From NCBI GenBank assembly GCA_050084515.1, contig CM114271.1, forward strand, positions 23,064,001 to 23,128,000: 64,000 bases of DNA, written 5' to 3'. The position numbers and the translations under genes are program-made. How positions within the stretch are numbered: position 1 is the first letter of the stretch; every line of letters begins with the position of its first letter. Shown here piece after piece: positions 489 through 46,820 of the stretch. Under the pieces are notes generated by a model. That model saw only the letters and a list, made by a program, of their open reading frames with translations. It did no database searches and was not told the origin of the DNA. Source of the stretch: Blasia pusilla (taxonomy: Eukaryota).

Positions 489-2042
489 TCTCTCTTAAAA
501 AAAAAGGGCCAAATCCGCCTCCTCTCTTCAAAACTTTTTGACATATTTGAAATTTTTGTTTGCTTTCAAATTCAGGAAATCTTTAGAAGAGAGTATTTAG
601 TGGTCCACATTTGGCCCTAAAAACCTCCTCTTTCTGGGGCGAAAAAAAAGGAGACATCATAAGACCACCCTAAACATTTTTCCATCACTCTCCATGTGAG
701 CCTAAGTTTCTTAACATTCCCTATCTCGGTCAACAAAAATCAGTGCCCTTGGTATTTTTGTTGGAGGACCACCCGGATGCCACCCTCTCTTTTTGCAAGG
801 ATTGTTGCCTGCATCATGGCCTCCCCTAAATTGCCCCATAACCAACTTTCTGTTGGTTATGAATGGTGTCTGCTCAAGACCAACTTTGTGAAATGTGAAC
901 ACATCAGATCCTAAGGCTGAGAAACCGAGAAGCTGCACCCCTCCCAACCTGTAAGAAAGCTCACTATAAGAAAGGAAAGATTTTTAGAAGTGATTTTCTT
1001 CCACCCTGCACCCACGACGATCTAACAGGTTGGGAATCCGAAATGGCAATCCGATAGGTAGTAGGAATCCTGCACATCTTAGACAAGAAAAGAAGCCTAC
1101 AACTGGTTTGACGAATGAATGGGAACGAGCCAAAAGTCAAGAAGCCTGCCACAATATGTCAGAAGTTGGTCTCACCGGGATAGAGTCCAATCACTCAAGC
1201 AGTGAACCTGTCGGAATCCGACAAGTTTCCTGGAAATGGTAAAAAAGTTGCAGTGGACAAAAAGCAAAAAGTTGCAACACGTCGGAATCATACGGGTTGC
1301 AGAATTGTAATTCTCAGTAGCTAAAAGAACACAATCCACAAGTCCAAAAAAATATTCCAGCAAACTTTTACAAACACCATTATGGGTTGAAAAAATCTTG
1401 TCCTTTATTACCTCCGAAGGAACCTCGGAAATGTACATTTCACCTAGTCTATGATTTCTTCAGCCTCGTCATCTACAAATTTACTCCTAACTCTCCTCGG
1501 TGACAGTACCAAAGGAATGTCTTGGGATACAAGTGGCTTCTCTGGCCGATTGTAGACGGGGATCGAAAATGTTGGCGAATTCGAGAGCCTTTCCCCCTAG
1601 GTACACCATAACGGTCCCATGTAACCTGTTTCGAGTCCCACCGCCTTCATTGGCAATATACCTTGTACGCTCTGCAATGTGACATCCATCAAGTATCAAT
1701 ATCTGCTCCGTCCCCGGTAATACCATTATGCCAATCGCACAGGTAGTAGGAATCCAACACGTCTGAGAGAAGAAAAGAAGCCTACGCTTGCCTTTACGAG
1801 TTGAGGGGAAGGTGCCAAGGGAAGAAGCCCGCCAGACTGCCTCTTAAGTTGGACCAACAGGGAAAGAGTCCGATCAGGCAACCTGTCGGAATCAGACAGG
1901 TTGCCTGGAAATGGTAAAAAAGGTGCAATGGTCAAAAAGTGAAAAAGTTGCAAGCAGGAGAAAACTAACGGTTGCAGTGGTCATAAAGTGAAAAGTTGCA
2001 AGCAGGAGAAATCCGACGGGTTGCAAAATAGAAGTCCGCGGA

Positions 2043-3045
2043 TGTCGCGCCCCTACTCTCGTTGAACGTCAATCTTTAGTGTTGCGGAAGCGTGCGTTCA
2101 GTAGGTCACGAACTCATCGTCGATCTGCAGCCAAACACGCACTCTCGTTAGTCGGGTCTGGGCGAACCGGCGTTCCAACCCACCGAGTCCTCGACTCGGC
2201 GTCTCATCAAGCTCAACCTTCCCTAGTTCCTAGCTTCCAACACATGGCAAGTCCTTCAAGACTTGGAACAGACTTCCTGGTTAGTCCAAGGATCTGAAAC
2301 GGCACTTGCACGCCTAGCGATCCCAACTGTTCAACGGTCCTCGTGTGAGTTCCGAACCGAGACCCAAGTAATTGAGTCGCGGCGTGAAATCCAAGAGGGA
2401 TGTCTAAAATCGCTTCAATGGACTTGGTGCAGGTTTTCCAACCCAACGCCCAAACTCGCGTTCCGTTCCATGCCCTTGAGCCGCCCCGCGGCGCCCAAAG
2501 TGGGGTTTGGATTCCAAGCACTCTCGGAGACCTTCCCCCTTACTAGTACTTCTGGGGTTCTCCAATAACCCCTCCCCTTCGGGAAAAGAGGGTCGGACCC
2601 TTCATTGTGGCCCTCAACCCGACTCCACTTACAGTCGTTTTCGGGTCGTATCTCGGCCTCTGCTTATGCATTTGCAGCGATCTTTGGTGCGTTTGGATCG
2701 GCTCTCTATAAGCTTTCCAACGCACCCTTATTTGCTCCAAACGCATCTCGGCGCTAAAAGTTATGGCCATAAATACAGTCGGAAACTCTCAAATGCTAGT
2801 GGCGTTCCTAATCCGGATCTTCCTTTTGGCAACCCACTCTCTAGACTCGACTTCTTTCAAGTCTCATTCCGCGTTTGGTCCTGGTTTCTCAGTCGCGACC
2901 ATAACACCTGAAACGCGATTCTTCGTTCGCGTCTCGTATCTTGTCTCCTCTTTGAGACAACTCCAACGCGCAAACCATCTTAGTGTGAGCCCGCTAATGT
3001 TCCGATGTTCCGCTTGGCACTTGTTTGGTCATGAGGGTCGCGACA
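2043..3045 (-). repeat. 3' LTR of the chromovirus
   Basis: Direct repeat of 8347-9349 with TG...CA ends; roughly 25-30 substitutions counted by eye. Confidence 0.97.
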
Positions 3046-3060
3046 CTCACCCCTCTTTTA
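3046..3060 (-). promoter_or_regulatory. Polypurine tract of the chromovirus
   Basis: Minus strand reads TAAAAGAGGGGTGAG immediately before the 3' LTR. Confidence 0.85.
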
Positions 3061-3736
3061 GAGGTTGATGCCCTCATCAACGCAAACTTTTATTATGTCA
3101 AGTCTCCTGGGCAGCCTACCCCTTTACATTGAATTGCGTTCTGGTGGCTAACCCGCAATTCCTCTTAGTCTCTAGTTGTCGCTTTGCCCCACTTAGAATT
3201 ATTAGCCTCTCATCTTCAATAAGCATGGACTAGTTCCAAGGAACTAACCTATCAAATAAGCTAACTAAGTGTGCAACCTTAGACTCTTTCGACTCATTAC
3301 TGTAAACATCATACCTGTTTACCTGGTCCACAAATCGTACTACTATTGGGTCGCTCTCGTATTCGACTTAGGCGCATCACTAAGTTTACTTATGTGGCCA
3401 CAAGTAAGATCACCCCAAGCCCCAAGACAGACTTCATCTGCCCCGCCGACGCTAGGGCGAGCCCGAGTGTAATCCAACACAAGGTCCTGTTCTAGGTGCT
3501 TATCCACATACGAGCTCTCACCTCAAATACTCCTTGTCTATCCTCTTGTTGTATATTCTAAGCCTATGATGAACGACTCATAGCCATGCACTACCACATA
3601 CAAATTGCAATCAACATTGGTATCGAATCTCCAAATCCATACACTCCTTTATTGCAACACTAGCATATTCTAGTTACAACGGCCTTCGGCCCAAGATTCC
3701 AGTGGTTACAAGTCATGTCTCTAGCTTCTCCTCGTA

Positions 3737-6700
3737 CTAACGTATGTGCTTCGCTTGTGTTCGCTTGAAGTCACGCAGCAACTCTTGCGCGTGTTCCAAA
3801 TCCGCCTCCGCAATCCAAGTCGCCTCCTTCACATGGTAGCCCTTCCATTTGACCAAGTATTCATACTTGTTGGCCCGACGCCTCGAACGTAAGATGGTCT
3901 CCACCTCGAACTCCGGCTCCTCATTTACGATGACCGGGTGCGGTCTCACCACTGTCTCCGCTTTCGAAACGCGTCCATTATCTTGAAGATATTTCTTCAA
4001 CAATGACACATGAAAGGTCGGGTGAATCTTGAACTCGTCCGGCAGCCTCAACGTATACACATCCTCAAACGGGTTTGCCACAATCAAATACGGTCCAACA
4101 TACTTGGCAAACAGCTTCGCAGACAACTCTTTCGGAAGAGTGAGATTCTTCACACTCAACCACACTTGTTCTCCAACTTGGAATCGCATTTTGGCGCCGA
4201 CTCTTGTTAGCATGCTTAACGCGTACCTCATTTGAGCCTTTGCAAGACTTAGCCTCGCGCTCTTCTCGTTGTCGCATCTCTACCAACAAACTTTCTGCCG
4301 TCGCTTGTCGTGTTCGTGCCAATGTAGTACCCTTCGAAAGGGCTAGATCAAGAGGCCCTTCTGGCTCTCGTCCATTTGCCAGGAGAAACGGAGATTCTCT
4401 AGTTGTAGAATGCTTGGTCGAGTTGTAGGAGTATTCCGCCATGCTCAGCCATCTGACCCAATCGCGTTGATCAAAGACGACATAATTCCTCAATCACCGA
4501 TTCACGATAGAGTTTACCTTTTTCATCGGTCCATCCGTCGTGGTGGAAAGCCGTCATCAAACTCAGCTTGGTCTTAAACCTTCGAACAAGTGCTTCCGAA
4601 AGCACGGTAAACTTTGATCCCGATCTGAAACAATGCTCCTCGGCAAACCATGAGCACGCCACCAGCTATCGAGGAATAGTTGCGCCGTCGTATACGCCGT
4701 TGCGGAATCCATCGTCGGCACGAATCTCGCCAACTTGCTAAACCGATCAACAATCACAAGTATAGCAAGGGTCCTTCGGGGATCGGCAAGGGATGCAGCA
4801 AGCCATGTTTCTTATCATAAGAGACCCTATTCGCTTGGCAGGTCACATAGGTCTTCACATATTGAGCAACATCCTCCTTCATGTTGGGCCAAAAGAACCG
4901 CTTCGACAGAACAGCTAGCGTAGATTTCTCTCCTTTATGTCCTGCTAAGGGCCCGTCGTGACATTCCGCTAACACCTTGGTTCGCATCCTGCCTTGCCCT
5001 ACATAGATCCTACTGCTTTTAGTAAACCTTAGTCAAACCTTCTGGCCACCTTCTCATGCTTCAACTTCCTTAGGTATTCCCCGCTTGAGCATCCTTCATA
5101 TATCCTTCACGAATCCTTCTCTCAGATCTGTTTCCTTAGGGAACATTGCTCTCAAGACTGTGTCGTCGATGGCATGTGTTCCTCCTTGCGACTTAACGCA
5201 TCTGGAATCACATTGTCTTTACCTGGCTTGTGGATCAACTCTACATCCATCAGCGCCAAGGTATCATGCCACCGCAGTTGTTTCGGCGTCACTCGATCCT
5301 GGGTCTCAAAATACTTGAGTGATATATTATCGGTGAATACTCGAGTCCTGTGGAGCCCTAGATAATGCCGCCACTTCCTCAAGCAATGTACCACCGCGAA
5401 CAACTCTTTCTTGTGAGTAGGCCATCTCCTTTCATTGTCGCTAAGCTTCTTGCTCTCATATGCTACCGGTCTCCCTTCTTGCACCAACATTCCTGCAACC
5501 GCAAAATCACTAGCATCGGTACGCACTTCGAACGGTTTGTCAAACTCCGGCAGCTTTAACACTGGTTCATGCGATAGAATCTGCTTCACTCGGTTGAATG
5601 CCTCATTAACTTCCTGGGTCCAAGTCGTGTTGGCAAACTTTTCCGTCCAATCCGTGAGAGGTCTCACAATTCCCGAAAAGTTTTTCACATAAGTACGATA
5701 AAATTGCACCGCACCTATGAACCTCCTCATCCCCTTTACAGTGGATGGGGGTTCCCGCGCGGAAATCGCCTTTACCTTTTCCATGTCTGGAGTGACGCCA
5801 TCTGCATTGACCGCGTGACCCAAGAATTTGATCTTACTCAAACCAAATTCGCTCTTCTCTACATTCGCATACAGTTGATTTGCCCTTAGCTTAGACAAGA
5901 CCGCTCTCACATGTCGAATGTGCTCCTCTAGTGACTTCGAATAGATAAGTATGTCATCGATATAGATGATAATATACTCATCCATTTCCTTGTGAAAAAT
6001 GGAGTTCATCAATGTGGTGAAAGTCGGAGGCGCGTTACATAGACCGAAAGGCATCACTACAAACTCAAAGGAACCGTATCTCATCCTGCACGCAGTCTTC
6101 TCCACATCTGCCTCGGCAATCCGAATCTGGTAATATCCTAACTTCAAGTCAATCCTACTAAAATATCTCGCGCTTTGCCACCTATCAAAGAGATCATCTA
6201 TCCTTGGAAGAGGATAATTGTTCGAACCGTCACTTTGTTGGTCTTGCGGTAATCAACACACACCTCATCTTTCCATCCTTCTTCTTTACAAAGAGAACAG
6301 ATGCTCCATAAGGTGACTTGCTAGTCCTAATGTTAACCCTTTTCCAAGAGCTCACTTAATCGCTTTTTCAACTCAAGAAGTTCCTCCCTGATTCAACCTA
6401 TATGGTGCTTTTGAAGGCGGTTGGGAACCGGTATGATCTCTATCTTATGATCTACGGCTCTATGCATGCGGCAATTCAGTCGGAAGCTCATTTGTGAAGA
6501 CATCCTCAAACTCCTTGACCACTTCCTTGAGTGGTTGGGATTCCCCTTGAAGCAGGCGTCTGATCTCTGCAGATATAACGCTTTGTAGCCTCCTCCACTT
6601 GTCTCATCAAGCAGAGAAATCCATCCTCCAACTCGGTCATGCTCCTCCTTGTGATCGAGTTCACCAACTCCATCTTCGTTGGAACCTCACGGACCAACCG

Positions 6701-8197
6701 CTTTTTGAATCGTTTGCCTTTTAGCAAGACGCTCAACCTCAATGGTCGGCGTCTTAACTCCACCTCATACGCATCTAGGAATGTATTCCCCAAAACTCCG
6801 TCAATGCCGTCCATTTCGCATATAGTGAAATTCTCCTTCAACTCGAATACCCCGCATCCTACTGTCAAACCCAAGACCAAATCAGAAGTCCGATGAGACT
6901 TGCCTCCTGCAAATCCCACTCGAATGGGCTCGTCTGCCTTAGAGGTAGACAACCCCAGTTCCTTCACGATTCTCAGGCTTAGGAAGGAAAGCGAAGCACC
7001 TGTATCCACGAGCAACAACACATCGCGATCAACAATCTTGGATCTTAGGTACACCAAATTGTGCGTCCTCTTGGTGACTTGAAGGGACGTCTCGATATCG
7101 CCCGCCAATAGATGCTTAGCAGAAAACGCAATCATACTCCCATTACTAACCTTCGGTTTCGAACACCCTTTCGACAGGTGCCCCGGTTCGCCACAGTTGT
7201 AGCATACGACCTTGCCGTTTCCTATCTTTGAGTGTTGTCCTCCTTTCGGCTTTGCATGAAGTTCCACTTGTTTTGCTGCCGGGGCAGACTACTCTCCTGG
7301 TTTGTGTTGGCCCCCACTCCAGCCTCTTTTGAACGCCTCCTTATTTTTTGACTTCTTCGAAAAAACTTTTGACTCGAAGGGTTTCTGGGTTTGGACCTCA
7401 TCGTCCCCAATCCGCTCCGCTAGCTTTAGAAGGTCCGCCCAGGTCTCTGGTAACGTCGGCATTCGGTAAAGGGCCTTTTCAGCGCTCGGCTTGAGTCCAC
7501 TAATGAAGATAGCCTTCTTCGCGTGCTCATCCATCTTCGGACTAGAAGTCAGTTTCGCACTAAACTCCCTCACATACGCGCTTAAGGAACCACTCTGCCG
7601 CATCCACACGCATTCCACCGTGTCACGAAACCCTTGATACTCCGGAGTGAACCAATCCCCAATCAACTCCTTGAACTCCTCCCAACTCAGAGGTGACCCG
7701 CCGCCCAGATATTCCTCTCGTTGAGCTGTCCACCATTGTAGAGCATGATCCTTCAGGAAAGTAACGGCTACCGTCACCTTGTCCTGCTCAGCAGCCCTCT
7801 ACGCCTCGAAGTACAGTTCCAGTTCCGTAAGGAAATCCTTCACTTTTCGCGAGCGCCCCACTCCCGTGAATGGCGTGGGCAGGTTCGTCTTGCCGAGCTT
7901 TTTGCCCGCACCCGGGTTTCGAGTGGCCTCTAACTCTGCAATCCGCTTGCTTTGCTGGGACATCTGCTCCACCAACACCTTCAACAAGTCCAACGTCTGG
8001 CTCGACTCCATCCTTTCCCCTGAGTTTGGGCCCACCGGCCCCGCGGAAGGAGTCGCCTCTGGGACGTCCTCACGACTGGCGTTCAGCTCTTCGGGAGTCT
8101 CCGTCTCCTCTATAGCCTCACGGTCCGGCATTGGTTCCTCTCTTGGTTCACGTCGCTTGATTCGGCGCTTCTTGGGTTGTTCTCCCTCGATCGCCAT
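3737..8197 (-). pseudogene. gag-pol of the chromovirus (frameshifted)
   Basis: Gag (7289-8197); CCHC knuckle CYNCGEPGHLSKGC and protease LLVDTGAS (6506-7267); RT YIDD and RNaseH TDAS (5152-6147); integrase HHCC and core (4065-4987); chromodomain FEVETILRSRRRANKYEYLVKWKGY (3737-4231). Confidence 0.95.
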
Positions 8198-8332
8198 TTA
8201 CAAGCCAACTCACTCAGATCTCCTCCTCGTTTCTTGCGTCCCTCCTCGAGCGTCCGAGTCGAGCCGCTACCTTGAAATTTCCCAAGCGTCCGGCTGATCC
8301 TACGACCCCAAGTTCTCGCTCACCAAGGATAA

Positions 8333-8344
8333 GCTCTAATACCA
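8333..8344 (-). promoter_or_regulatory. Primer binding site (tRNA-iMet type)
   Basis: Minus strand TGGTATTAGAGC, 2 nt after the 5' LTR; one mismatch to the canonical TGGTATCAGAGC. Confidence 0.85.
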
Positions 8345-8346
8345 CT

Positions 8347-9349
8347 TGTCGCGCCCCTACTCTCGTTGAGCTTCAATCTTTAGTGTTGCGGAAGCGTGCG
8401 TTCAGTAGGTCACGAACTCATCGCCGATCTGCAGCCAAACACGCACTCTTGTTAGTCGGGTCTGGGCGAACCGGCGTTCCAACCCACCGAGTCCTCGACT
8501 CGGCGTCTCATCAAGCTCAACCTTCCCTAGTTCCTAGCTTCCCACACATGGCAAGTCCTTCAAGAATTGGAACAGACTTCCTGGTTAGTCCAGGGATGTG
8601 AAACGGCACTTGCACGCCTAGCGATCCCAACTGTTCAACGGTCCTCGTGTGAGTTCCGAACCGAGACCCAAGTAATTGAGTCGCGGCGTGAAATCCAAGA
8701 GGGATGTCTAAAATCGCTTCAATGGACTTGGTGCAGGTTTTCCAACCCAACGCCCAAACTCGCGTTCCGTTCCATGCCCTTGAGCCGCCCCGCGGCGCCC
8801 AAAGTGGGGTTTGGGTTCCAAGCACTCTCGGAGACCTTCCCCCTTACTAGTACTTCTGGGGTTCTCCAATAACCCCTCCCCTTTGGGAAAAGAGGGTCGG
8901 ACCCTTCATTGTGGCCCTCAACCCGACTCCACTTACAGTCGTTTTCGGGTCGTATCTCCGCCGCTGCTTATGCATTTGCAGCGATCTTTAGTGCGTTTGG
9001 ACCGGCTCTCTATAAGCTTTCCAACGCACCCTTATTTGCTCCAAACGCATCTTGGCGCTAAAAGTTATGGCCATAAATAAAATCGGAAACTTTCAAACGC
9101 TAGTGGCGTTCCTAATCCGGATCTTCCTTTTGGCAACCCACTTCCTAGACTCGACTTCTTTCAAGTCTCATTCCGCGTTTGGTCCAGGTTTCTCAGTCGC
9201 GACCATAACACCTGAAACGCGACTCCTCGTTCGTGTCTCGTATCTTGTCTCCTCTTTGAGACAACTCCAACGCGCAAACCATCTTAGCGTGAGCCCGCTA
9301 ATGTTCCGATGTTCCGCTTGGCACTTGTTTGGTCATGAGGGTCGCGACA
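8347..9349 (-). repeat. 5' LTR of the chromovirus
   Basis: Direct repeat of 2043-3045, adjacent to the PBS. Confidence 0.97.
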
Positions 9350-10151
9350 GCGGAGTACATAGACGATCACATTCGAAAAGACAAAAAATGTTCAGCAAAC
9401 TTTTACAAGCACCACCATCGTTCAAAAAAATCTTCCGCTTTATATCATCCGAAAAAAGCTCGGAACTATACATTTGATCTATTCTATGAAATCTTTTGCC
9501 TCATCATCAAAAAACTCCGTACTCCAACGCTGCAGTCAAGCTGGGTCGTTGAGTTCTTTGAACTCACTCGTCATCGTCCGAGAGCTCTTGCAAAATTACT
9601 TTCGGCCTTGCCCTCCCGATTTTTGGAATCGTTGGAAGTGACGATGGAGTCACTACCAAGGGTGGCTCTGGAACCAGAGCTCTCGGCTTCGGTGGAGAGT
9701 TGTACACCCCAATGAGCCTTTTGTATTCTGCCTTTGCCTCCTTGCAAAGGTCAAACAGTTCCTGCCTTCCCTCGAGGCAGAGAATGTTCCTGCCACTCTG
9801 CCAGGCGCCTTTGATACTTGCCCCTGAAAGTCACACTAAGTCGAACACCAAGTCACCCGGCCTTGAGCAGAGCTCGATGAGCGTTTGCATTAGGGCTGGC
9901 GACTTTTCCCTTCCTCCCAGAAGTGGGGTACTGTCTTGCATGTAAATTCCCGGGGGGGAATTGTACAAACTATCTAAGTGCCCATCGAGCATGGATCCAC
10001 AGGATCCTAGATCTTGAACACCTGGAAATTGTGCTCGGGCCGAACAAAGCAGTACACGTAGGAGTGGTCCATCTGTAAATCAGCATGTTGGAAACAATGT
10101 CAGCAACAAAAGAAGTCGACTTGAGAACATTTTCAATTACTGACTTTGGAT

Positions 10152-10482
10152 CAACCTGTCGGAGTCCGACGGGTTGTTTTGTCCCGGACGAGCCCGTCAC
10201 CTTCCGACGGGTTGGTCAGGGACTAAAACAACCCGTCGGGCTCCTTTGTTTTTGTCCGTGAGCAACTCGTCGGAAGGCGATGAGTTGCTGACCTAGAGCA
10301 ACCCATGCTCGCCTGAGAGCAACCCGTCGCTATCAGACGGGTTGCATCAAAAACCAAAAGCAACTGGGAAAAACCAAAAGCAACTGCAACCCGTCGGAAA
10401 CCGACGGGTTGCTCTCAGCCAAGCATGGGCTGCTCTAAGCCAACAACCCGTCGCCTTCTGACGGGTTGCTCACAGACAAAAA
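10152..10482. repeat. Intronic array of 27-bp palindromes containing a ~98-bp inverted repeat
   Basis: About 7 copies of CAACCCGTCGGA-N-TCCGACGGGTTG variants; 10249-10346 is approximately the reverse complement of 10385-10482. Confidence 0.9.
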
Positions 10483-12640
10483 AAACGGAGATTGACACTC
10501 ATTATACTCACTCAACGGAGATGAACACTCATTATACACATCATTAAAATATAATTGAAATTATAGTACAGGAATTGAGCCTTACCCGAATCTGACTCAT
10601 CGCGGATAAGAGTGGGTACTTGTTTTTGATGATCCACGATTGCGCCGTCCTCCACTTTAGCGACCTCTTGACGCACTAGAGGTTGAAGAGCTCGTCCTCA
10701 CTCCCTCTAGTCAACACCAAGAAGCAACCCTTGTCACTCAGATAGGCGTCAGCAAAGGAGAACAATAGCACAATCTGGTCATAAGAGAGCGTCACATTCC
10801 ACTTAGGTATCTCATCCGACGGATTCTCGCCCCAAAGTCGCAACCCCGAGGGCAGATCGGCGATCAAGAGATCCACCGCAACCTCTTCGACCACTCCATT
10901 CACAGTCCAGGCAGCGTGCCGGTTTTGTTGGAGCTTCCGTCCCAGCGTTGTCAATTTTTCGATGGCTGGTGTCGACGCTTGAGAACTGAAGCTCTTCAGC
11001 TCATCCAGTAAAGGAGTGAATTGAAGGAGGACGCTTGTCCGGGTCGTTGTTTTTCTGTGTCTTCCCAAGGATGATGGACTGTATTCTCCTTGGGACAACC
11101 CGGGCACCTCTCGCTTCCGCTTCTCCCTAGTGTGCGGACGGCTTGTCGGGGTCTCTATGACCTCAGACTCTGGTGGGGTTTTTTTGCCGAGGACCTGGTC
11201 CGACCCTCTCTCCCCGCTCGCCCGGACGATTCCGCCTCTGGCCTTGAATCTTCAGCCTCTCTTTGGGAAGACTCGGCCTCTGAATTTTTCCCTCCCCTCG
11301 CCTTGCCTTTGAGACCCGCTGTGGATTTGTGTTTGGCTATGCGGACCTTGGAAGCCAACTCAGCTGTCTCGTGGGCCTGCTCTTCTGCATCTCCTCCGAA
11401 GAAGTCTTCAGGCTGGACGAAATTGGGGATGTCGTCTTGTCCTGAGGCCACTGCATCATGAAGCACTCGTAAATCCTTATCGGTAATGTCTTCAGGAACG
11501 TTGAAGTCGAGCCAAATGGGGCAATTCTCCACCTCCCAATCGGACATGTGCTGCCCCATCTCCATGTCGTATATGGAGAATGTCTCGCATCCGCATGAAG
11601 CCCACAATTTCAAGGCTTACCGGTAATTTTCCCACGCACTGCATTCTTACACTAGACGAGGTACCAAGACCATCCATTGGGCAGCTTTTAGTCGAACAGA
11701 ATCGGCCGTCGCTCTCGTAGATCTCGCTTCTTCTTCGCTTGATCCCGTTTCTTCCCTCTACTTCTTCGTCAAGCTCTTTCGAGGGAGGGCGCAAACCTTG
11801 AACATGGTCTTGAATCCTGGGTTTTTGGTTGGCTTGTCCCGGATGTCGTCGAGCCAAACCTTGAAATCTCCAGAACTTTCAAGGTTTGCTTCATCCGGGA
11901 TGGGCTCTAATCTTCTGAGCTCCGCTTGCAGACCATCCAGCACGGACTTCCCGATAACCCGCAACGCGTCCCAGAACGACCATTCGCGTAGCCAGTGCGA
12001 GATCACTAGATCGGACACACCCGGAGGATGGTGTGCCCCCCTCTTCTAGGCCTCTGAGCCCTCGAGACTGATTTTCATCAGTCGGATCCTCCTAAACTCG
12101 CTTATGCCGGACAACGCAAACCGATGCACGCGATCCAGGGACACTTTCTCTCCAATCCGACCATGCGGATCTTCATCCCTTTTCCGCTGGCGCTTGATAA
12201 TCGCCTTCAGCTCCTTGTAGAACTCCGGACCAAGTTCGGGGTTGAGAATGTTGATGTATCGTTGCATCTTGCTCGCCGTGTATTTCGTTCTTTCGCAGAA
12301 TCGCAGCGGCTTTGATGAATTTCGCGCTTCAGACGCAGATACCTTTCTCCCTCCGCTCGGCTCGGTCAGCGCTTTTCTTGGCCTGTATCTTTGACCAGCA
12401 AAGGATGGTTACAATCGCATCTTGGGAAATAAACTTATTTGCCCAAGTTTTCTTTTAATCTGAGCACCCTTTGCAAGCATCGATTGACAAGGGCACGCCC
12501 AAGAACCCTTGTACTCCCGGGTGCGTCGTAAGCACCTTCCTCACCCAATCGCAGTCCTGGATCCAATGGTGGGTGACATTTCCCTCCGATACAATCCTGC
12601 ACATCCAAACTCAACCCGTCAGGAAATTACATGGGTTCCT

Positions 12641-13237
12641 GCAACCCGCCGGACTCGACGGGTCGTCATACTCAAGGTCGATTCTAGCAACGAAGCTAAA
12701 TGATGCAACCCGCCGAGTCCGACGGATTGCATTCAGATTTGCTTATGCCTGGTTTCAACCCGTCGGACTCCGACGGGTTGTGCAACTGAACATACTAATG
12801 TGAACATAGCAACCCGTCGGAGTCCGACAGGTTGCGTAATTGAGTGTAAACTTGCAATTTGACGCGAAATTTGGGGAACCAACTTCCGAATGCAACCCGT
12901 CGGACTCTGACGGGTTGCTTTGGGGAAAAAACCTTCTAAACCTGCAGTCATTCGAACAACTCGTCGGAGTCCGACGAGTTGCATTCTTCAAAAAACACCC
13001 TGACAAGGCGGCGAGTCGAGCAACCCGTCGGACTCCGACGGTTTGCTTTGGGCCAAAAACTAATTAAATCTTTCCTCAATCAAACAATTCGTCGGAGTCC
13101 GACGAGTTGCATTCTTAAAAAAACATCCGAAATAGCATGCAGTCGAGCAACCCGTCGAAGTCCGACGAGTTGCTTTTGGCAAAAACAAACCTAACCCATT
13201 CATCAATCGAGCAACTCGTCGGAGTCCGACGAGTTGC
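12641..13237. repeat. Intronic array of ten 27-bp palindromes with a ~64-bp period in its right half
   Basis: Copies start at about 12641, 12705, 12756, 12809, 12892, 12956, 13020, 13084, 13147 and 13211. Confidence 0.93.
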
Positions 13238-14836
13238 GTAAGTGTTAAAGATACTCACGTGTTCATGGCATGCATTGCCATCTCCACCGTCGCCATGTGA
13301 TGAGGGAATGGGTGAAGGACCACTGCCTTCACGCAGAAATGTGCCTCCAATGAGTTGGGCCGCTCCTCCGCAAACTTGGTCCACGCCATGAACGTGTGAT
13401 TTCCATCCCAGATGAAGAAATGCAGATTCCTCATGCAGCTGAATTCCGTGCCCTCAACTTGCCTTCTGAAATCCTGGTCTCGCAACCTCCAGAATGTGTC
13501 GAGCTTTTCCAAGTCCTCCTCCGTAACTAGAGCTTGGGTTCCATGCTCGTCGTAAGGCTGAACATAGAAGGGAGGAAAGCTCTCGACGTAGGATGCTATC
13601 GCCGCCGATTGTTTAAGCTTCGCGATGTCCTCGTCGGACTGAATTTCGCGGATGTATTCCATTGTCCGCAATCGGCAGAGTGGAATCCTTGGGGCGTTGT
13701 GGCCCTCCATGAGTGCCATCTGATTTACCACTTGTCAGAACCGGGACAAGATGAATAAGCTACACTGAATTCCCAATGAATTGCAATTCACATAATTCAA
13801 AACACCCAGATCCTCTCTTACCCGCTTGAAAATGGGGTCGGTTTCTTGACCAGCTAACTTGTCTAAGACAGAAGCTGGCAAATCGACTGGGAACTCGTCG
13901 ATCCGATAGAGGTCGATGTCCTCCGCCGGGCTTGGAGTCGAGAATGACCGCTCTCCGGCTTCTTCGGCCATGTCCACCATCTCCACGCTGGCGGTCCTCA
14001 TGACCTCGCCGTCATCGATTTCAACTTGGCGTTTCCACTATGTTGATTGTGTCCCGGACTTCGTGGGGACATTTCCCGCATCTCAACACTTGCGGTTGGA
14101 CGGGCAGGGATATCGTCAATGGCTATCGCTTTTTCCCTCCTCGCTTCATCCAATTCTGCCCTCCTCACCAACGCGTCCAGACGCTTCTTTTCTCTCTTTT
14201 CGTCGACGATCCTTTTCTTCAAGGCCTGCGACGTCTCAACCTCTGCATTTTGTTTATCTAGCGCCTCTTGAACACGTCTCGCAAGAAGCACTTGGTTGTG
14301 CATCTCCGCTTCCCTTTCCCGCTCCTCGATTTCATGCTGCCTAATTTCATTCGCCGAACGAGGCCCAGGAGATGCTGACGCAGGAGTCCTAATGGACTTC
14401 GGAGTGAAGCTCCCAGACTTGTTGGCTTGTGATTTTTTCCTCGTCATTTTTTCCGGAAATGCCTCCACCTATGTCCACGACGAATCCCTTGATCAGTCGC
14501 CTTGCTGATGTCGAGATGGGGAGCTCGAATCGCCTTGATGGGTAGCTCGAATCGTCCCGCGATCGCTCACTCGAACCGTCTCGCTGTCGTTCGGTCGAAC
14601 CGTCTTGCTCTCGTTCCCTCCTATGGACTCGCGATGTGTCGCCGTGTGAAACGCCCCTTCGTATTTGATCAGCTGCTGCGCGGGAGAGTGAGAAATGAAG
14701 ATCGTGAAATGAGAAACCGAAAATGAGCAATTTTTGCCCTATTTATACTTTTGTAGCCGTTGGGCTGACCGTTGGGTCCCATTGTCCTTTCGACGGCGAC
14801 GTGCCGGAGGTTACGGAAGTCCGAACGTGAAAAATG

Positions 14837-15412
14837 GCAACCCGTCGGAGTCTGACAGATTGCGCGCCTCCGCCATCTTAGGTACGTCGCCACGTGCGCG
14901 AGCAACCCATCGGAGACCGATGGGTTGAGCGCCTCCGTCGTCTTCGGAAAAGAACGCGAGGTACCCGCTCAACCCGTCGGAGACCAATATGTTGCGTGCC
15001 TCCGCCGTATTTGGGACGGGAACGGGACGTATCTTGGGCAATCCGTCGAAGACGGTTGGTTTGCACGCTTCCCTCATCAAGGGTTAAGAACGTGGGCTTC
15101 CCGTGCAAGTGATCAGAGTCCGGCTGGCTGCACCACAAGGCGAGGCCCTTGCCCAACCCGTTGGAGGGCGACGGGTTGCACGCCTCGCCGTCTTTGGGCA
15201 AAAAGGTGAGGCACCCGCGGAACTCGTCGAGAACAAACGGTTTGCACGCCTCCGGAATCTTCGGGCAAGAAGGAGCGGTATCCGAGCAACTCGTCGGAGA
15301 GCGACGGGTTGCTCGCTTCGACAATGTTTAGCGAGCGTGCAACCCGTCCGGCCGACGGGTTGCGTGCTTCGTTAGCTTCGGGTATTTTTGAGTTACCAGG
15401 ACTCGACGGGTT
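14837..15412. repeat. Intergenic array of the same palindrome (~65-68 bp units) between the two divergent MULE genes
   Basis: Copies at about 14837, 14902, 14970, 15038, 15154, 15221, 15286 and 15339. Confidence 0.85.
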
Positions 15413-15857
15413 CCAAGTGTGATCGCAACCCTCCGCTTCCCAAATCCGGTAACATATTGCAACAGAATTGAATGTGTTCTGAATTGATCCATTGTGTCAC
15501 ACAATGTCACCCACCGAATTTATCTTGTCTCAGTAAAAATCATCAAGAGTATCATTTCCTATTCACTATAAATTAAAAATTCTCATTCTCATTCTCATTC
15601 TCGTCTCCTCCCGTTGAAATCTTCTTGGAATGGATAATTATTTTAAGCTCACTTGTGGTACTATCATCGCGGCCCTTCCTCAATCGAAATCATTTGACCC
15701 CAAGCTCGTGAGTCTTTCATAGCAAGTGGATGAAAATTTTCGTCTTCGATTTCTTCTCCAATTGGAACCATCTTTGTATCCAAAGATATTAGGTGGACGG
15801 CACGGAAGACATAATAGGTAAGACGGTCCAGCCAAAGGTGACCTCGGACCGTAAAGT

Positions 15858-18800
15858 ATGGAATCTCCTACCTCTAGCAAATGGTCAATACAAAGTTTAC
15901 GGCCACTCGAATTCGCGTCTGTTTCCCAAGTAGACGGTCTAGAATTTCCTAGTGCTCCGAGCTCTACGTTTGCAACTCCAAGCTCTGCAGATCCGGCCGA
16001 CTCAACCGTGACGCTCAGTAACAATGTTGTTCTTCTGAAGAGATTCGGATGTAATCAACCTCCGTGGATCAGCCGGACACCAATCGGGCCCTCTGTCCGC
16101 CTACTCGTTCCTCTTGCGAGTATCAGGCAATAGTTTGCTTTCGTCTCTGGCCTTGAAAATGTTCAAGCACATTCTTGTCAACGAGCTGCCGCCCACGTAC
16201 GATGGTAATTGCATTTTTGAGTTGCCTCCACTTGTTGCTCCTGCTCAAAAGAAGGATGGAGGACGCCTGAAGGGTATGGACAGAAAGTCTGATTGTCATC
16301 GATGGTGCAGGCTTCAATGGACCAATGCTTCAATTCCGGATGGTCCTTGGATTGTCTCCCGCCGCCAATGCGTGGGAGCCTTGAAGTGTAGAAGTCCAAC
16401 ATGCCCGTATTTAGAGCGCAACAGGCGAGTCAATACGTCGCAATTCCCTCCCAAGAATGCAGAAACTCCATACGAGGTCGGTGCCACCATACCGCCGGGA
16501 GGCCATCGATGTCCTCATTCTCAAGCATCGCCCTTCTGCGTTGGAGCGTGTCCTGCATACATATTTTTCATTGTCCACGACTTGGGCTCCACGTCAGAGT
16601 ATACAAGGCTGGTAGTCCATGTTGGCTCCCACACTCATCCTGTGACCGATGCAATTCAAAGACACATCAAGGAGGATGTGGCGAAGAAAGTAGCCAAGGT
16701 CTACAGAAACTCTCCGGGTTCAAAGCCCAGAGTGATCAAGCTCACAACGGCATCACAAATTTGTGAACAATTGCTTGGAATCCCTGGACAGGGCAAGATC
16801 ACGGCGGTTGAGGAGAAACAACTCTGGGAAAATCTCGCATTTCTCGCTGATCCTGAATGCTTCCGGAATTTGCCGTCGATACGAGTTATGGATGGAAAGA
16901 CGGCCGAAATGGATGCCATCGCCAAAATCAAGGCAAACTCCAGATTTCCATTCATTCAGAGATGGTAGTTCATGGGCCAAGGAGGCGAGGGATCCAGGGC
17001 CTATGTCTTCAAAATGTCAACCACAGGTCCGTCGAGTGGCCTCAATCTTATAGATCGAATGAGGGAAGAGGAAGATCTTTACGGGAGCTGGGTAAGCTTT
17101 GATATTTGCTACAGAGTGCTGAACGGATGGTTGACGATGGGTGCTCACGTTTATGACCATGTGGAGAAGGGACTCAAAACTATAGTTGTTTGTGAAGTAA
17201 AGGCAGAAGACGTTGGCAGTTTGAAGATGTGCTGGTTACTCTTATTGGAGGTGGTGAAGGAAAACAAAAGGCCACGTCCGGAAATTTATGGGTTCATGGC
17301 GGACAATGCACAACCTGGGTGGATTGCTATTCGGGAAGTGTTATGGGGTGGAAGGTTCAACCGGAGAGGGAAAGGTCGGATGCTTTCCATTGGCAACAGT
17401 CTATGACCCAGTACACCAAATCTTGCATCAAGGAGAATAAGAGGACAGAGCATGTGACTCTACTCCAACGCTGCAAGGACAGCAAAACCTTGAAGCAGGC
17501 CATGGAATGCCAGGAAGAACTTCATGGGTGGTGGAGGAAGCATGCGATTGAGGGGAAGTACAAAGAGTTGCGCTCTTGGTTGAGTTGGTGGACTGAACGT
17601 ATGAGACAATGGGGAAACTTCATGCGGCAGGTGAGATCACTATTTTGTCTTGTCAAGCTCACGCTGAGAATTGTTTGTAAAGTTGTAGCTCAGGGTGAGA
17701 AGCGTGGGAACTATATGGATTTCAAACCCAAGAAACCAAGCAAGCTGTCGGATGCGACGGGTTGCCCGAGTGTGCAACCCGACGGAAACCGACGGGTTGC
17801 CCGAGTGTGCAACCCGACGGAAACCGACGGGTTGCCCGAGTGTGCAACCCGACGGAAACCGACGGGTTGCATCCAGATGCCTCGGCCTTGCATTGGATGC
17901 CTCGGCCTTGCAACCCGTCCGGTTCCGACGGGTTGCAGTAGGTGGGTTTAAGGTTACAACACGTCGGGACCCGACGGGTCGTAGAGTCGTTCATGGGATA
18001 TCTCGGGCCTACAACCCATCTGGTTCCGATAGGTCGCTTATTTCTTTGACTCTTGAGTTATTTTTCGTTCCCTTCTAACATTGTCGTCGTTGCAGGGATT
18101 GAACGTTCATGAAAATGCCCTCTGCCCCAACACAAGTGGAGCAGAAAGTGTTCATTCCTCTTGGAGGTCGTAACAAGCATGCCAATGAATTTCACTTGTG
18201 GAGGCATGCCAACAAGACCAAGCAAGAGCAATGCTACAGTCTACAGCATCCCATATCTTCCTCACAAAAGGCATAACAAAAGAAAAGGGGCCGTCGATCT
18301 ACGAGCTCTATGTCAAGGCGGCTGTGAGATCTGGTGATGAAAAATTGTATGTGGAAGCCTTCAACCGGTGCGTAGTTGGAACTCCACTCGAGCAAGACGT
18401 ACACATTGGTGGGGATATTCGTGGGCGGGTTTCAAGACGTCCCATACAGATGGTGGTAGAGCAGTCCGAGCGAGACTCGTGGAGACCAGATAAGTATCTT
18501 GACTTCAGGCAGGTGAAGAGGCAACATCGAGGAACGAATCCGGTGATTGATTTGGATGAGGAAATTACACCGCCCAGGTATTCGGGGACCCCGGACCCGT
18601 CCCAAATCCATGATGGAGTTACTTCTCCAAAATCAGTGAATGTTTTATTTCAAAAGCCCTCCGTTCTTTGGAAGTTCGCAACATCCCGTCACCGGGTGGT
18701 TCAACAATATGGAATTCGGTAATGGAGGTGGATTGCAACCTAAAACGGTGGCATATATCTGGAGCAACCCAGACGTGGACCCCCTGCGGCAGGCAGATCG

Positions 18801-19580
18801 ATGGCATTAAGAGAGCATGCTGCACTTTCCTAAATAAGAATCGCACAAGGATGGGCGACCACTACCTGGGTTTTGGGGACTCAAAACCTTTGATCGTTTC
18901 ACAAGGACCGGGGATCAATTGAATTCCTTCTTCTGCCCAAATGAATCTTGCACTTTCCGGAAGTCTTATCCGGCTGCCATTGGAGCTCCCGGGAATACCC
19001 CCACGATTTGGCCCATCGCCGCAGTACGAATCGCACTCAAGACGAAATGGACAATCTTACTAGTGCCGGTTTGACTCGAGGCGGGGAAGTTCAGAGCATG
19101 TTAGCATTACTGAGACCTTCAGATTTAGTATTCAACCCAAGATTGATGTCAACATGTACCGGAGAAGGTGGATGATCTCAATCCATTATTTGTGTTTGAG
19201 TCTAGAAATGGGGTGAAGAGAAACAGAATGTGCAGCCCAACGGTGGAGAGAGCAAAGCGAATTGCATAAGCTCGGGAGGCAAAAATGGAGATCGTCGCCA
19301 CGAAAGATGTCTTGAGTGGCAATGGAATAGGAAGGATGTATTGGGTCAGAACAACATCAGAATTCAAGTGTCACAAGATGTGGTGCACATCTGTTGCTTT
19401 CCCACATGTTCATGTGATGACTTTGTCCAACGAGAGACAAGTGGCAAAAGGTATTTCCCTTGTAAGCACATGTACTATGTGTTGCTGGTAGTTTTAAGAG
19501 AGTCAGAGGTAGGAGTAGGAATCCACCAACAAATTCTGTCCCTCAAAGAAGTGCGAAGTATTTTAAAAAAACCACTTTGA
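15858..19580 (+). pseudogene. MULE transposase with GCM/WRKY-like Zn domain, DDE core and SWIM finger
   Basis: CVGALKCRSPTC...HVGSHTHPV; WVSFDICYRV (first D); GFMADNAQPGWIAIREV (second D); DAFHWQQS (CxxH position); PNTSGAESVHSSW (E, ~18127-18165); SWIM PTCSCDDF...CKHMYYV. Intron 17631-18095. Stops and frameshifts present; start position uncertain. Confidence 0.85.
17755..17980. repeat. Palindrome array inside the transposase intron (34-bp tandem unit x3 plus degenerate copies)
   Basis: GCAACCCGACGGAAACCGACGGGTTGC repeated with a CCGAGTGT linker. Confidence 0.9.
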
Positions 19581-19942
19581 GGATGCAAAACGAGGTTTTA
19601 GATTGTACTTTTATTTTTCCTGAATCTTCACTATGAGCTTGAACTCTATTTAGCCCGGGGCAAATGATAAATTTTTTCCAGACCTTGGATGGGAAAAGTG
19701 ATTGGTTCCACACTTGTGATTCCACTGATTTTTCAGTTTTCTAAATTTTGTGCAATTTGCAACTCGTCGGACTCAGAGGGGTTGCCAAAATATGGAAGAG
19801 GAAAAAAAAACTGTGGGACTGCTTCATAACTGAACAAAAAAGTGCAAAAAAATTCAAACAAAAATTTTCCTCTCTTCAACCCAACGGAAACTCTCTTAAA
19901 AAAAAAGCATCTATTTCGGTTCAAGGTAGTTTCCTCTCTCCT

Positions 19943-34082: not shown

Positions 34083-34726
34083 CTCACGTCTTTTAGGATA
34101 GATCAATGAGATCTAGTAGAGCGCCTTTGTGAGTAGCGCAGGACATGCTCAATAGGTCGAGGATGACCTGCTGAGGCCCCGAGAAACCTGAGAGAGCAAG
34201 TTTCCCCTTCGTTTTGGCTCATTTGGAGCCATATTGAGGAGCTTACTTTTTTAGGTAAGTACCATTTTGAGTATATGATCGACGTTCTACTTTTGGTAAG
34301 TGACCCTTGATCTCCTACATCAGGTCAAGAGCCAAGGAAATGACTTGGGAGCATAGGTTACCATGGAGAGAGCTTGGGAGAGGGGAGGGGTATATCTCAA
34401 GGAGAGAGAGCTTGAGAGCTCATTATCTCTTTGTTGAACCTCTTGGCATGAGGCGGCGGAGCTATGGTCTTGCTTGCCTTGTGTGTGTAACCCAAGCCTC
34501 TCATTAGGAGAGTGGGTTGGGTTTGACATTGAGAGACATATGTGACAGTGCACACATATGAGAACTCTGATGTTGTGAGAGAGATTGGATCTTATTTTAT
34601 TGGAGATATTTTGGTACCTCTTGTCTCATTGTTTGGATGCCATGAGTTAGCATGGGATCGTGCGTGTTTGTGTGTCTATTCGGTGACAGCGATGTATGTT
34701 GTGTAGCGATGTGTATACGCACGACA
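34083..34726 (+). repeat. LTR of the DNMT/PHD Gypsy family
   Basis: TCACGTCTTTTAGGATAGATC...ACGACA; similar to 21997 onward and to 39696-40331. Confidence 0.8.
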
Positions 34727-39139: not shown

Positions 39140-39455
39140 TGTCACGTCTATTTGGATAGATCAACGAGATGTAGTAGAGCGCCTTAAGAGATATTGGAGG
39201 ACAGCCTCAAAAGATTGAGGATAATATGCTGAGGCCACGCGTAACCTGAGAGAGCAGATTTCCCCTTCGTTTAGGCTCATTTGGAGCCGTATTGAGAAAG
39301 TTACTACTTCGGGTAAGTGACCATTTTTTGTATAGTTGAGTTTCTACTTTGGGAAGTGGCCCTGGATCCGCTACACCTAGTCAAGAGCCAAGGAGATGGC
39401 CGACGAGCATAGGTTACCGTGGAGAGGGTTTGGGAGAGGAAAGGGGATATACCTC
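39140..39455 (+). repeat. Truncated LTR of the same family, followed by (GAGTA)n
   Basis: Starts TGTCACGTCTATTTGGATAGATC; similarity ends near 39455. Confidence 0.7.
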
Positions 39456-39695
39456 CATAAAAATAGAGTAGAGTAGAGTAGAGTAGAGTAGATTTTTAGT
39501 CCACGGGAAGCCAATCTCGCTTATGGGACCCCTTCCACATATATGATTGACATCGCAATAGACAGGTTCCTTCACATCTAGATTTGGTATTATCACTAAA
39601 GAGATTTGGTTTTTTTTTTGTTTTTTTAATTTTTTTATAAAGGCTACAATTTTTATCCAGATTTTTGACCTGGGAGCATAGTCAAGGCACACGCA

Positions 39696-40331
39696 TGTCA
39701 CATCTTTTAGGATAGATCGGCGAGATCTAGAAGAGCGCCTGCAGAGATACTGTAGGGCAGCCTGGGGAGGTCAAGGATGATCTATTGAGGCCATGGGTAA
39801 CTTGAGAGAGCAATTTTCCCTTCGGTTCGGCTCATTTGGAGCCAAATAGAGAAACTTACTATTTCAAATAAGTTTCCATTTGGAATATAGTTGACTTTCC
39901 ACTTTGGGAAGTTTCCCTTGACTCGCTACAACAGGTCAAGAGCCAAGGAGGTGACCTGCGAGCATAGGTTATCAAGGAGAGAGGTTGGGAGAGGGAAGGG
40001 AGTAAACCTCCAAGAGAGAGAGCTTGAGAGCTCATTCTCTCTTTGTTCAACCTCTTCGCATGAGGCGGCGGAGATATGATCTTGCTTGTCTTGTGTGTGT
40101 AACCCAAGCCTTTCATGAGGAGAGTGGGTTTGGTTTGACATAAGAGAGAGTGCACACCATGGAGAGTTTGGAGTGAGAGATGTGATGTGAGATCTACTTG
40201 ATTTATTGGAGATATTTTGTACCGCTCGTCTCGTTGAGAATATTCCATGAGTTAGCATGGGATCGTGCGTATTTGTCTGTATGTTCCGTGATAAAGATGT
40301 ATGTTGTATAGCGATGTGTATGCGTACGACA
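39696..40331 (+). mobile_element. Solo LTR of the same family
   Basis: TGTCACATCTTTTAGG...ACGACA; flanks CGCA/CACA could be a 4-bp TSD with one CpG transition. Confidence 0.8.
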
Positions 40332-46600: not shown

Positions 46601-46604
46601 CAAC

Positions 46605-46820
46605 TTCCCCAAATGGAAAGTCAATTATATTCAAAACGATAACTTACCCCAAACAATAAGTTTTTCAATATGGCTCCAACTGAGTCAAAACGAAAGAGAA
46701 ACCTACTCTCTCAGGTTACCCGTGGCCTCAACATGTCATCCTCGACCTCTTGAGGCTATCCTCCAGTATCCCCGAAAGCGCTCTACTAGATCTCGTCGAT
46801 CTATCCTAAAAGACTTCACG
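46605..46820 (-). repeat. LTR fragment (DNMT/PHD family), reverse orientation
   Basis: Reverse complement of the TCTTTTAGGATAGATC... LTR start. Confidence 0.7.

Follow-up and report, generated by a model that had tools for sequence, protein, structure and literature searches.

A probable transposon accessory gene in a liverwort-like genome carries a bacterial-type methyltransferase-like domain without the motif IV aromatic residue

An intron-split domain at the end of a larger gene

We analysed a 64,000-nucleotide (nt) stretch of contig CM114271.1, here called the window, in which two divergent genes lie among arrays of short palindromes and a retrotransposon sits just downstream of one of them (Table 1). 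That gene, read on the minus strand, ends in a domain resembling bacterial-type DNA methyltransferases, and the region holding this domain is probably the C-terminal part of a decayed copy of an accessory gene that belongs to a DNA transposon in the genome of a liverwort-like plant. All coordinates are those of the whole window.

A first interpretation made from the letters of the DNA (the sequence-only reading) had proposed an intron-split methyltransferase fold at 9564–10880, and every peptide that it quoted was found on the minus strand at the position it gave. When the two halves were run against the profile that it named, Pfam PF01555 (N6_N4_Mtase), the C-half (P0002) matched with E = 1.4e-4 and 22.3 bits at profile positions 165–220 of 221, below the curated cut-off of 26.7 bits, whereas the N-half (P0001) had no Pfam match. 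Among solved structures, phmmer matched the C-half to M.RsrI (E = 0.012) and DpnA (E = 0.048). Scanned in full with HMMER, 1.84 billion representative proteins gave 12 matches to the N-half at E ≤ 1e-3, the top two (9e-14 and 3.4e-12) being hypothetical proteins of Riccia fluitans and Riccia sorocarpa; a word-index search with the N-half for longer proteins gave no match, and neither blastn nor tblastn found further copies within the window. Judged by sequence, both peptide halves belong to a bacterial-type DNA methyltransferase-like domain that is split by an intron.

The region singled out at first is real, yet it covers only the C-terminal domain of a larger gene running from about 14447 to 9564. 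Five tblastn blocks of this gene are collinear with P0054, a Riccia relative of 1,244 amino acids (aa) and, together with an upstream ATG and a TATAAATA box, they argue that the domain is the C-terminus of a protein of roughly 1,100 aa encoded by about 4.9 kb. The intact protein is predicted to have about 1,100–1,250 aa, with an N-terminal WDGNHR domain, a long linker and the C-terminal methyltransferase-like domain. Within the 5′ coding part, a stop at 13735–37 may mark a small intron.

The two halves are separated by a 513-nt intron whose position is set by homology. Its donor GT follows ...SAMSQIR (exon end 10586), its acceptor AG precedes 10072, and the Riccia gene models P0003 and P0004 end 5 to 22 residues past the same splice point. 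A 106-nt inverted repeat lies inside it, with arms at 10241–10346 and 10385–10490. RNA depth was 0.1–0.5 in the bin 10048–10396, compared with 5.8–11 in the bin 9699–10047. The proposed split thus holds, but the reading frame proposed downstream of it does not: the post-intron exon opens with MDHSYVYCFVRPEHNFQVFK (10013–10072), which corresponds to the block KVxHSKVEVFCKxxxxFxIPK of the family alignment and whose frame terminates at a TAG at 10007–10009, whereas the earlier frame reads ...GSMLDGHLDSLYNSPP...REKSPAL.... Since the two frames differ, a frameshift near 10007–10016 is needed.

Six premature stops fall within blocks that align to relatives (Table 1), and the frame also changes between 11335 and 11218, besides the frameshift near 10010. 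The TGA in motif I replaces the codon of the first motif I glycine, which in other copies is GGA (Gly); the base giving GGA at 9833 was present in 30/30 RNA reads (5/5, 10/10 and 15/15 in runs X19, X20 and X21) and made up 18723.9 of the 18835 depth in DNA run X1. The window copy, carrying six premature stops along with one or more frameshifts, is a badly decayed, non-functional pseudogene.

Beyond the stop at 9564, the minus strand reads FFDDEAKDFIE-stop (9482–9514), with a 75%-alike duplicate, FVDDEAEEIID-stop (1447–1479, also minus). Both resemble the ...PFVDDEAQEE... tail of the longer Riccia proteins P0025, P0028 and P0054, so the true C-terminus may lie beyond the end first proposed. The 3′ end of the gene is tandemly duplicated (1316–1479 against 9354–9514, and 1043–1277 against 1728–1953).

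Table 1 Features of the methyltransferase-like gene and its surroundings in the window
Feature	Position	Strand	Remarks
N-terminal (catalytic-side) half of methyltransferase-like domain	10586–10939	−	DLPSG, IPKWN, LSDKGCFLVL, SWIIKNK
VDLLIADLPSG	10844–10876	−	Quoted peptide
Motif IV position DLPSG	10844–10858	−	
LSDKGCFLVL	10712–10741	−	Quoted peptide
Premature stop TAG	10676–10678	−	N-half, in-frame
SWIIKNK	10619–10639	−	Quoted peptide
Intron, GT-AG	10073–10585	−	513 nt, phase 0, filled with palindromic hairpin units
Hairpin array in this intron	10152–10468		
Last coding block of methyltransferase-like domain	9564–10072	−	HSYVYCFVR (motif VIII-like, 10013–10072, frame A), frameshift, then motif X/I/II half
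REKSPALMQTLIEL	9870–9911	−	Quoted peptide
GDLVFDLV	9834–9857	−	Quoted peptide
Premature stop TGA	9831–9833	−	Motif I, in-frame
LSGAS	9816–9830	−	Quoted peptide
ILCLEG	9768–9785	−	Quoted peptide
Stop codon	9564–9566	−	End of region in the sequence-only reading
TATAAATA box upstream of gene	14740–14747	−	Read from sequence; putative function
5′ coding part	13735–14447	−	ATG 14445–14447 (MTRKKSQ...), lysine/glutamate-rich, frame changes; read from sequence
N-terminal conserved domain	13255–13734	−	PRIPLCRL (13669–13692), WDGNHT (13393–13410)
Probable intron	12409–13254	−	From collinearity; holds a tandem hairpin-unit array
Hairpin array, intron after WDGNH exon	12892–13237		Period 64/128
Middle region	10940–12351	−	NILNPELGPEF 12220–12252; WEVENCPIWLDF 11503–11538; collinear with Riccia proteins; four in-frame stops
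Premature stop TAG	12046–48	−	
Premature stop TAG	11758–60	−	
Premature stop TAA	11647–49	−	
Premature stop TAA	11617–19	−	
Collinear block 1	13692–13261		P0054 residues 153–300
Collinear block 2	12261–11926		P0054 residues 421–531
Collinear block 3	11547–11506		P0054 residues 579–592
Collinear block 4	11176–10700		P0054 residues 788–943
Collinear block 5	9917–9567		P0054 residues 1035–1149
Hairpin array between the two divergent genes	14838–15362		Intergenic; period 67
SWIM-finger gene, multi-exon, divergent	16039–19580	+	C-terminal SWIM-type zinc finger 19407–19481
Hairpin array, neighbouring gene's intron	17755–17870		Period 35
Hairpin units, flanks	1275–2023 and 19760		
Element continuation beyond retrotransposon	1275–2042		Hairpin units; 75%-alike duplicate (1316–1479) of 9354–9514
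Long terminal repeat (LTR) retrotransposon, later insertion	2043–9349	−	LTRs 2043–3045 and 8347–9349; 215 nt downstream of stop 9564

Kinship and motifs of the encoded protein

By its alignments the domain is of the permuted (beta-class) N6_N4-type amino-methyltransferase-like kind. The beta-class order that the sequence-only reading had noted, with DLPSG upstream of the GDLVFDLV-x-LSGAS segment, is confirmed in the family, where the motif IV position is followed by LDDRGCLIILH, HSKVEVFCK and K-C-x-G-F-V-Q-T-L-L-E-N-F-T-x-x-G-D-I-V-I-D-F-x-G-G-W-G-A-T...A-A-x-N-x-x-R...E, collinear with phage methylases. Comparison by hhalign of 13 family members with six phage methylases, chosen as matches of the relative P0009, gave an alignment of 148 columns (probability 97.5, E = 7.9e-12). 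It begins at the strand that follows motif IV, takes in HSKVEVF and ends with motifs X, I and II, and so covers both sides of the intron. P0009 matched 44 of 50,697 phage records by tblastn (39 annotated as methylases, 3 unannotated and 2 hypothetical), and the match to an adenine methylase of Synechococcus phage ACG-2014f, which has DLPYG, covers P0009 residues 63–266. Among the nearest clusters in the ESM Atlas, 24/30 were PF01555, of bacteria and phages. Against PF01555 itself, P0009 scored 24.5 bits (E = 3.1e-5) and P0032 25.9 bits (E = 1.1e-5), and the profile is precomputed on 5/30 relatives. A profile of 13 relatives reached only E = 0.19–0.32 against PDB sequences, all three matches being beta-class methylases, and a viral_contigs scan with the family alignment gave no match. 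The ancestry of the domain appears to lie among the permuted (beta-class) N6_N4 amino-methyltransferases of bacteria or phages.

A methyltransferase domain of the DIRS1 type was considered and rejected. Such a domain would lie inside a reverse transcriptase/RNase H polyprotein next to a tyrosine recombinase; this gene has no reverse transcriptase or recombinase part, and the sole nearby reverse transcriptase belongs to the later LTR-element insertion, which has its own target duplication, TCCGC. In the portion available of the source, the DIRS1-retrotransposon methyltransferase is given as PCIF1-related (group 2) (PMC4738411).

All named relatives are multicopy genes of Riccia, a liverwort. 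R. sorocarpa has 30 gene models similar to the methyltransferase-like part (42–95% identity) and 24 similar to the N-terminal part; at least 6 models hold both domains, and nine pairs of models carry adjacent locus tags, which suggests split gene models. Many R. sorocarpa models are truncated or fused with unrelated models. Mean pairwise identity among 14 Riccia paralogues was 0.73 in the methyltransferase C-half and 0.67 in the N-half, as against 0.45 in the linker and 0.38 in the tail; the two methyltransferase-like halves are the best-conserved parts of the protein. As to annotation, the R. sorocarpa members P0020, P0024, P0047, P0049 and P0054 bear misleading public names (‘Trimethylguanosine synthase’, ‘Profilin’, ‘Plant heme peroxidase family profile’), the Riccia family models are otherwise annotated ‘hypothetical’, and some R. 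sorocarpa models seem fused to adjacent host genes.

The sequence-only reading had suspected that DLPS, in place of DPPY, was a sign of decay, an idea that does not hold for motif IV. None of 39 family motifs, which include unnamed fragments from other assemblies, has an aromatic residue (Y, F or W) at position 4; they read DLPSG (15), DMPTG (7), DVPEG (4), DIPTG (3), DMPSG (3) and others (7). Six annotated phage methylases, by contrast, have DLPYG, DIPYN (three), DPPYG and DPPFG, all with Y or F at this position, and the phage DLPYG and DIPYN show that L or I at position 2 is ordinary. Decay is found elsewhere in the window copy, as the stops and frameshift described above. Since the aromatic is missing from every family motif, and the methyltransferase halves are the best-conserved ones, its absence reads from these alignments as an old, conserved family trait. 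A motif I of the type D[FY]xGGWGA is kept in 24 relatives and aligns to DxxxGSGST of the phage enzymes; also conserved are the motif IV Asp and Pro, the motif X Lys and an acidic residue after motif I, and the W and N of a P-x-W-N block downstream of motif IV are nearly invariant. In amino-methyltransferases the flipped base is stacked against the motif IV aromatic, and enzymes without this residue are strongly impaired in catalysis; given that role, its loss here suggests that the domain may be an S-adenosylmethionine (SAM)-binding module with altered or no base-methylating activity.

Alternatively, intact members might be active DNA N6-adenine or N4-cytosine methyltransferases despite the Ser or Thr at the aromatic position, with another residue, such as the invariant Trp of P-x-W-N, taking over the stacking against the base; the targets of methylation would in that case be the transposon's own palindromes or the host genome. 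The retained residues of motifs I, IV and X, the acidic residue after motif I, the near-invariant W and N, the conservation of the domain above the rest of the protein and the transcription of paralogues (below) are all in keeping with an active enzyme. We nevertheless think it unlikely, given the uniform loss of Y, F or W in the 39 motifs, its presence in all six aligned phage methylases and the known cost of that loss to catalysis.

At the other end of the protein, the WDGNHR motif occurs in 17 relatives, with WEGNHR, WDGNHQ or WDGNQQ in 4 more and WDGNHT in the window. The pattern of this N-terminal domain (strand, IPLxRL, helix, strands, WDGNHR, helix) recalls ParB/sulfiredoxin domains, and the domain is possibly ParB/sulfiredoxin-like and DNA-binding. 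AlphaFold2 modelled it with a predicted local distance difference test score (pLDDT) of 54.9, residues 56–110 being near 80, and a metagenome_contigs scan with the domain gave no match. In the ESM Atlas, residues 125–345 of P0054 lay nearest to clusters of fungal DUF3723 (PF12520; score 0.95, 11/30 matches), and hmmscan of five family members gave no PF12520 match at E ≤ 10. DUF3723 is reported to be among the conserved genes that fungal Starship elements carry as cargo (PMC9156397); the likeness is that of accessory genes of mobile elements, their function unknown in both cases. We treat this likeness as a lead, which hints at an accessory domain common to unrelated mobile elements.

Palindrome arrays, the neighbouring gene and transcription

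The 11-mer CAACCCGTCGG, half of a palindrome, occurs 54 times in the window with one mismatch allowed, against 0.65 expected. All 54 half-sites lie within 1275–19770, with none in the retrotransposon at 2043–9349 and none in 19771–64000. The whole unit is CAACCCGTCGG-N3-CCGACGGGTTG, giving hairpins of about 25 nt arrayed with a periodicity of 35, 64/128 or 67 nt. Hairpin units were seen at 10152–10468, 12612–13236, 14838–15362, 17754–17981, 1275–2023 and 19760; the remaining 44 kb of the window has none.

The divergent neighbour of the methyltransferase-like gene matched the SWIM profile of Pfam at E = 0.0058 (16.6 bits, cut-off 19.6), and five exon-sized frames of it gave no MULE or DBD Pfam match. 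Mutator-like elements are defined by a DDE transposase domain, a SWIM finger, long terminal inverted repeats and a 9–11 bp target duplication. By its motifs, which we take to be those of a Mutator-like transposase, the neighbouring gene is a candidate for this class. Its intron at 17627–18091 is filled with hairpins, and the joint 17626→18092 (GT..AG) was seen in 7 RNA reads of paralogous copies (X19, 1; X21, 6).

The retrotransposon downstream of the methyltransferase-like gene was a later arrival; it has its own 5-bp target duplication, TCCGC, and LTRs that are 97.4% alike over 1003 nt. It is near-intact and of Ty3/gypsy type; its translations, judged by eye, resemble gag with a CCHC knuckle, protease, reverse transcriptase and integrase-chromodomain.

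Two inverted matches were examined as possible ends of the palindrome-bearing element. A 30-nt match (459–488/19943–19972) was rejected as terminal repeats, being CT-rich simple sequence. A 406-nt match (2–403/27239–27644) adjoins a different repeat also present at 42457–43678 and looks like copies of another element; this inverted match (83%) and the pair 26033–27243/42457–43678 are two repeat families abutting at about 27240. Directly past the right flank of the element begins an inverted repeat, 19984–21424/24495–25953 (1485 nt, 80% alike), inside which are further repeats common to 34084–34726, 39140–40331 and 46602–46814.

The description of the gene in the sequence-only reading as mobile and intron-containing was borne out, and its element is multicopy, the palindromes being private to the two-gene interval and the Riccia paralogues numbering dozens. 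It is quite improbable that the locus arose instead by duplication and decay of an ordinary host gene, beside which the transposase-like neighbour and the repeats are a coincidence. Undefined terminal repeats and target duplication would fit a host gene, as would a DNA contig depth several-fold lower on this gene than on the transposase gene, although depth is not copy number. Against it stand the palindrome, private to the interval with both genes and present inside introns of both, the dozens of paralogues that one Riccia genome holds at 42–95% identity, a good many of them truncated or fused, and the very many near-identical DNA pieces of run X1, from which about 110,000 short contigs fell on 10.4 kb.

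In the identity classes ≥99%, 95–99% and 90–95%, RNA reads aligned to the window numbered 0/49/130, 0/58/218 and 0/45/158. As all reads were less than 99% identical to it, they come from paralogues and not from the window locus; paralogous copies are transcribed. First mates lay mostly on the plus strand over 9350–14584 and on the minus strand over 15632–19800, corresponding to minus- and plus-strand transcripts, respectively, if the libraries are reverse-stranded.

Proposed role and comparison with known systems

As a probable accessory gene of a DNA transposon, the gene lies head-to-head with the candidate SWIM-finger, Mutator-like transposase gene on one element, whose introns, intergenic space and flanks carry the CAACCCGTCGG-N3-CCGACGGGTTG arrays. 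The intact protein would bind these arrays of its own element through its N-terminal domain; ParB proteins bind inverted repeats. Its SAM-binding domain would serve either as a methylase of a weak or non-canonical kind or as a DNA/SAM-binding module without catalysis, and the transposon would thereby mark itself or interfere with host silencing. The window copy itself does nothing. Self-recognition through palindrome binding is proposed by analogy, and we hold it doubtful. It is also conceivable, if rather improbable, that a ParB-like head and a re-tooled SAM-binding domain, joined in a single protein, serve a Mutator-like transposon of land plants as a module for self-recognition or against silencing. 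Such a module would be either related to the PAG2 and PAG3 genes discussed below or convergent with them, and would have been taken from a phage ParB–methylase locus.

Several observations weigh against this account of a transposon-borne methyltransferase-like gene. Single-sequence PF01555 scores of the window and of all scanned relatives are below 26.7 bits; the choice of the six phage sequences favours the C-half, and the local hhalign alignment does not take in motif IV itself. An AlphaFold2 model from 13 family sequences had a pLDDT of 30.9 and lent the fold no structural support. No read across the 10586/10072 junction is listed among RNA reads aligned to the window, so the splice rests on homology and on the dip in depth in the intron bin, and no RNA read among them is at least 99% identical to the window locus. 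The N-terminal domain has no Pfam or PDB-sequence match, and tblastn with it against phages gave none; its best Foldseek match had E = 0.95, 6/9 top rows being Noc or ParB at non-significant E = 0.95–3.8 with a template-modelling (TM) score of about 0.15, and VIA fold comparison found none with Z ≥ 2. For the Mutator assignment the basis is the SWIM match, which is under its cut-off, and motifs of Mutator-like type; clean terminal inverted repeats or a target duplication of the element were not found in the window, and the two genes together were inspected in the window copy only.

Bacterial-type amino-methyltransferases with demonstrated activity are reported in the liverwort Marchantia, and the sequence-only reading had suggested that a mobile family like this one could be their source. 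MpDN4MT1a/b of Marchantia have TSPPY, cluster with prokaryotic N4C enzymes and are described without extra domains in the part of the preprint available (10.1101/2021.02.12.428880). With these enzymes and with bdelloid N4CMT the present family has in common, as far as the available accounts go, a permuted PF01555-type domain of bacterial origin in a eukaryote, and Marchantia is likewise a liverwort. According to the same accounts, MpDN4MT1a/b and N4CMT are single or duplicated host genes with shown N4-methylcytosine (4mC) activity, N4CMT adding a chromodomain, whereas the Riccia/window family is transposon-borne, lacks the motif IV aromatic and is known from sequence alone. That the family is a reservoir of the liverwort 4mC enzymes is very improbable: the plant lineage and the broad class (PF01555, beta-type order) agree and named relatives occur in Marchantiales, but TSPPY is absent from the family, which has D-[LMIV]-P-[STEK]-G and large extra domains, in contrast to the reported features of MpDN4MT1a/b.

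A chance resemblance in non-coding DNA, for which the stop-ridden window copy and its sole, sub-cut-off Pfam match might speak, is already ruled out for practical purposes by the Riccia matches (E = 9e-14 and 3.4e-12), the five collinear blocks with P0054 and the profile–profile score.

In the literature consulted, this gene type is undescribed in liverworts or in land-plant Mutator-like elements, though supplements of a red-algal preprint may list wider homologues. Phage ParB-locus methylases are reported to have been acquired by haptophytes and chlorophytes, with few such enzymes in land plants, in the part of that survey available (PMC4738411). Bacterial-type amino-methyltransferase domains are described there as rare in land plants; here, one belongs to a probably transposon-borne gene family that is multicopy, bears introns and is transcribed in liverwort-type genomes. 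The SAM-binding motifs are kept and the base-stacking residue is lost in every member seen, which points to a changed or non-catalytic use kept by selection. With its private palindrome arrays, the family offers a testable case of a transposon that may recognize and modify itself, something so far proposed for red algae and shown in Arabidopsis with an unrelated protein. We consider the family of moderate interest and the window copy an ordinary dead transposon gene without function.

Phage and bacterial beta-class enzymes (M.RsrI, DpnA and CcrM) have the same order of motifs IV, V–VIII, X, I and II, and the GD-V-D-x-x-G-x-G-x-T, AA-x-x-x-R and E motifs in common with the present domain. They differ in having Y or F where position 4 of motif IV here is S, T, E or K, and HPTQKP where GxRKC stands here; the present domain, moreover, sits inside an intron-bearing protein of about 1,100 aa that is multicopy in a eukaryote.

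VANC is the anti-silencing protein of the Arabidopsis VANDAL (Mutator-like) elements, according to the portions available of two sources (PMC5735166, PMC10398659). The likeness would be one of mechanism, in that an accessory protein of a Mutator-like element is paired, on those accounts, with short motifs that have built up in non-coding stretches of the element. No sequence relation is expected, and binding by the present protein is a prediction. VANC is not known to have a methyltransferase-like domain.

Giant Plavaka, Mutator, Zisupton and Fanzor-bearing DNA transposons of red algae carry PAG2, with a PF01555 DNA methylase and a SET domain, and PAG3, with a ParB-like domain and a 2OG oxygenase; in the part of the preprint available, both adjoin tandem inverted-repeat arrays and are proposed to serve self-binding and self-modification (10.1101/2025.02.11.637652). 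By description, those elements and the present one are DNA transposons whose genes encode a methylase-like domain of PF01555 type together with a domain weakly resembling ParB, and they have in common, within the same partial account, tandem inverted-repeat arrays beside the ParB-like gene, mostly degenerate copies and low transcription. Unlike PAG2 and PAG3, the scanned Riccia relatives have no SET or 2OG-oxygenase domain by Pfam; here, both domains are joined in one polypeptide, the host is a liverwort-like land plant and motif IV is without its aromatic. Compared by description only, the PF01555/ParB accessory genes of red-algal transposons are the closest published parallel.

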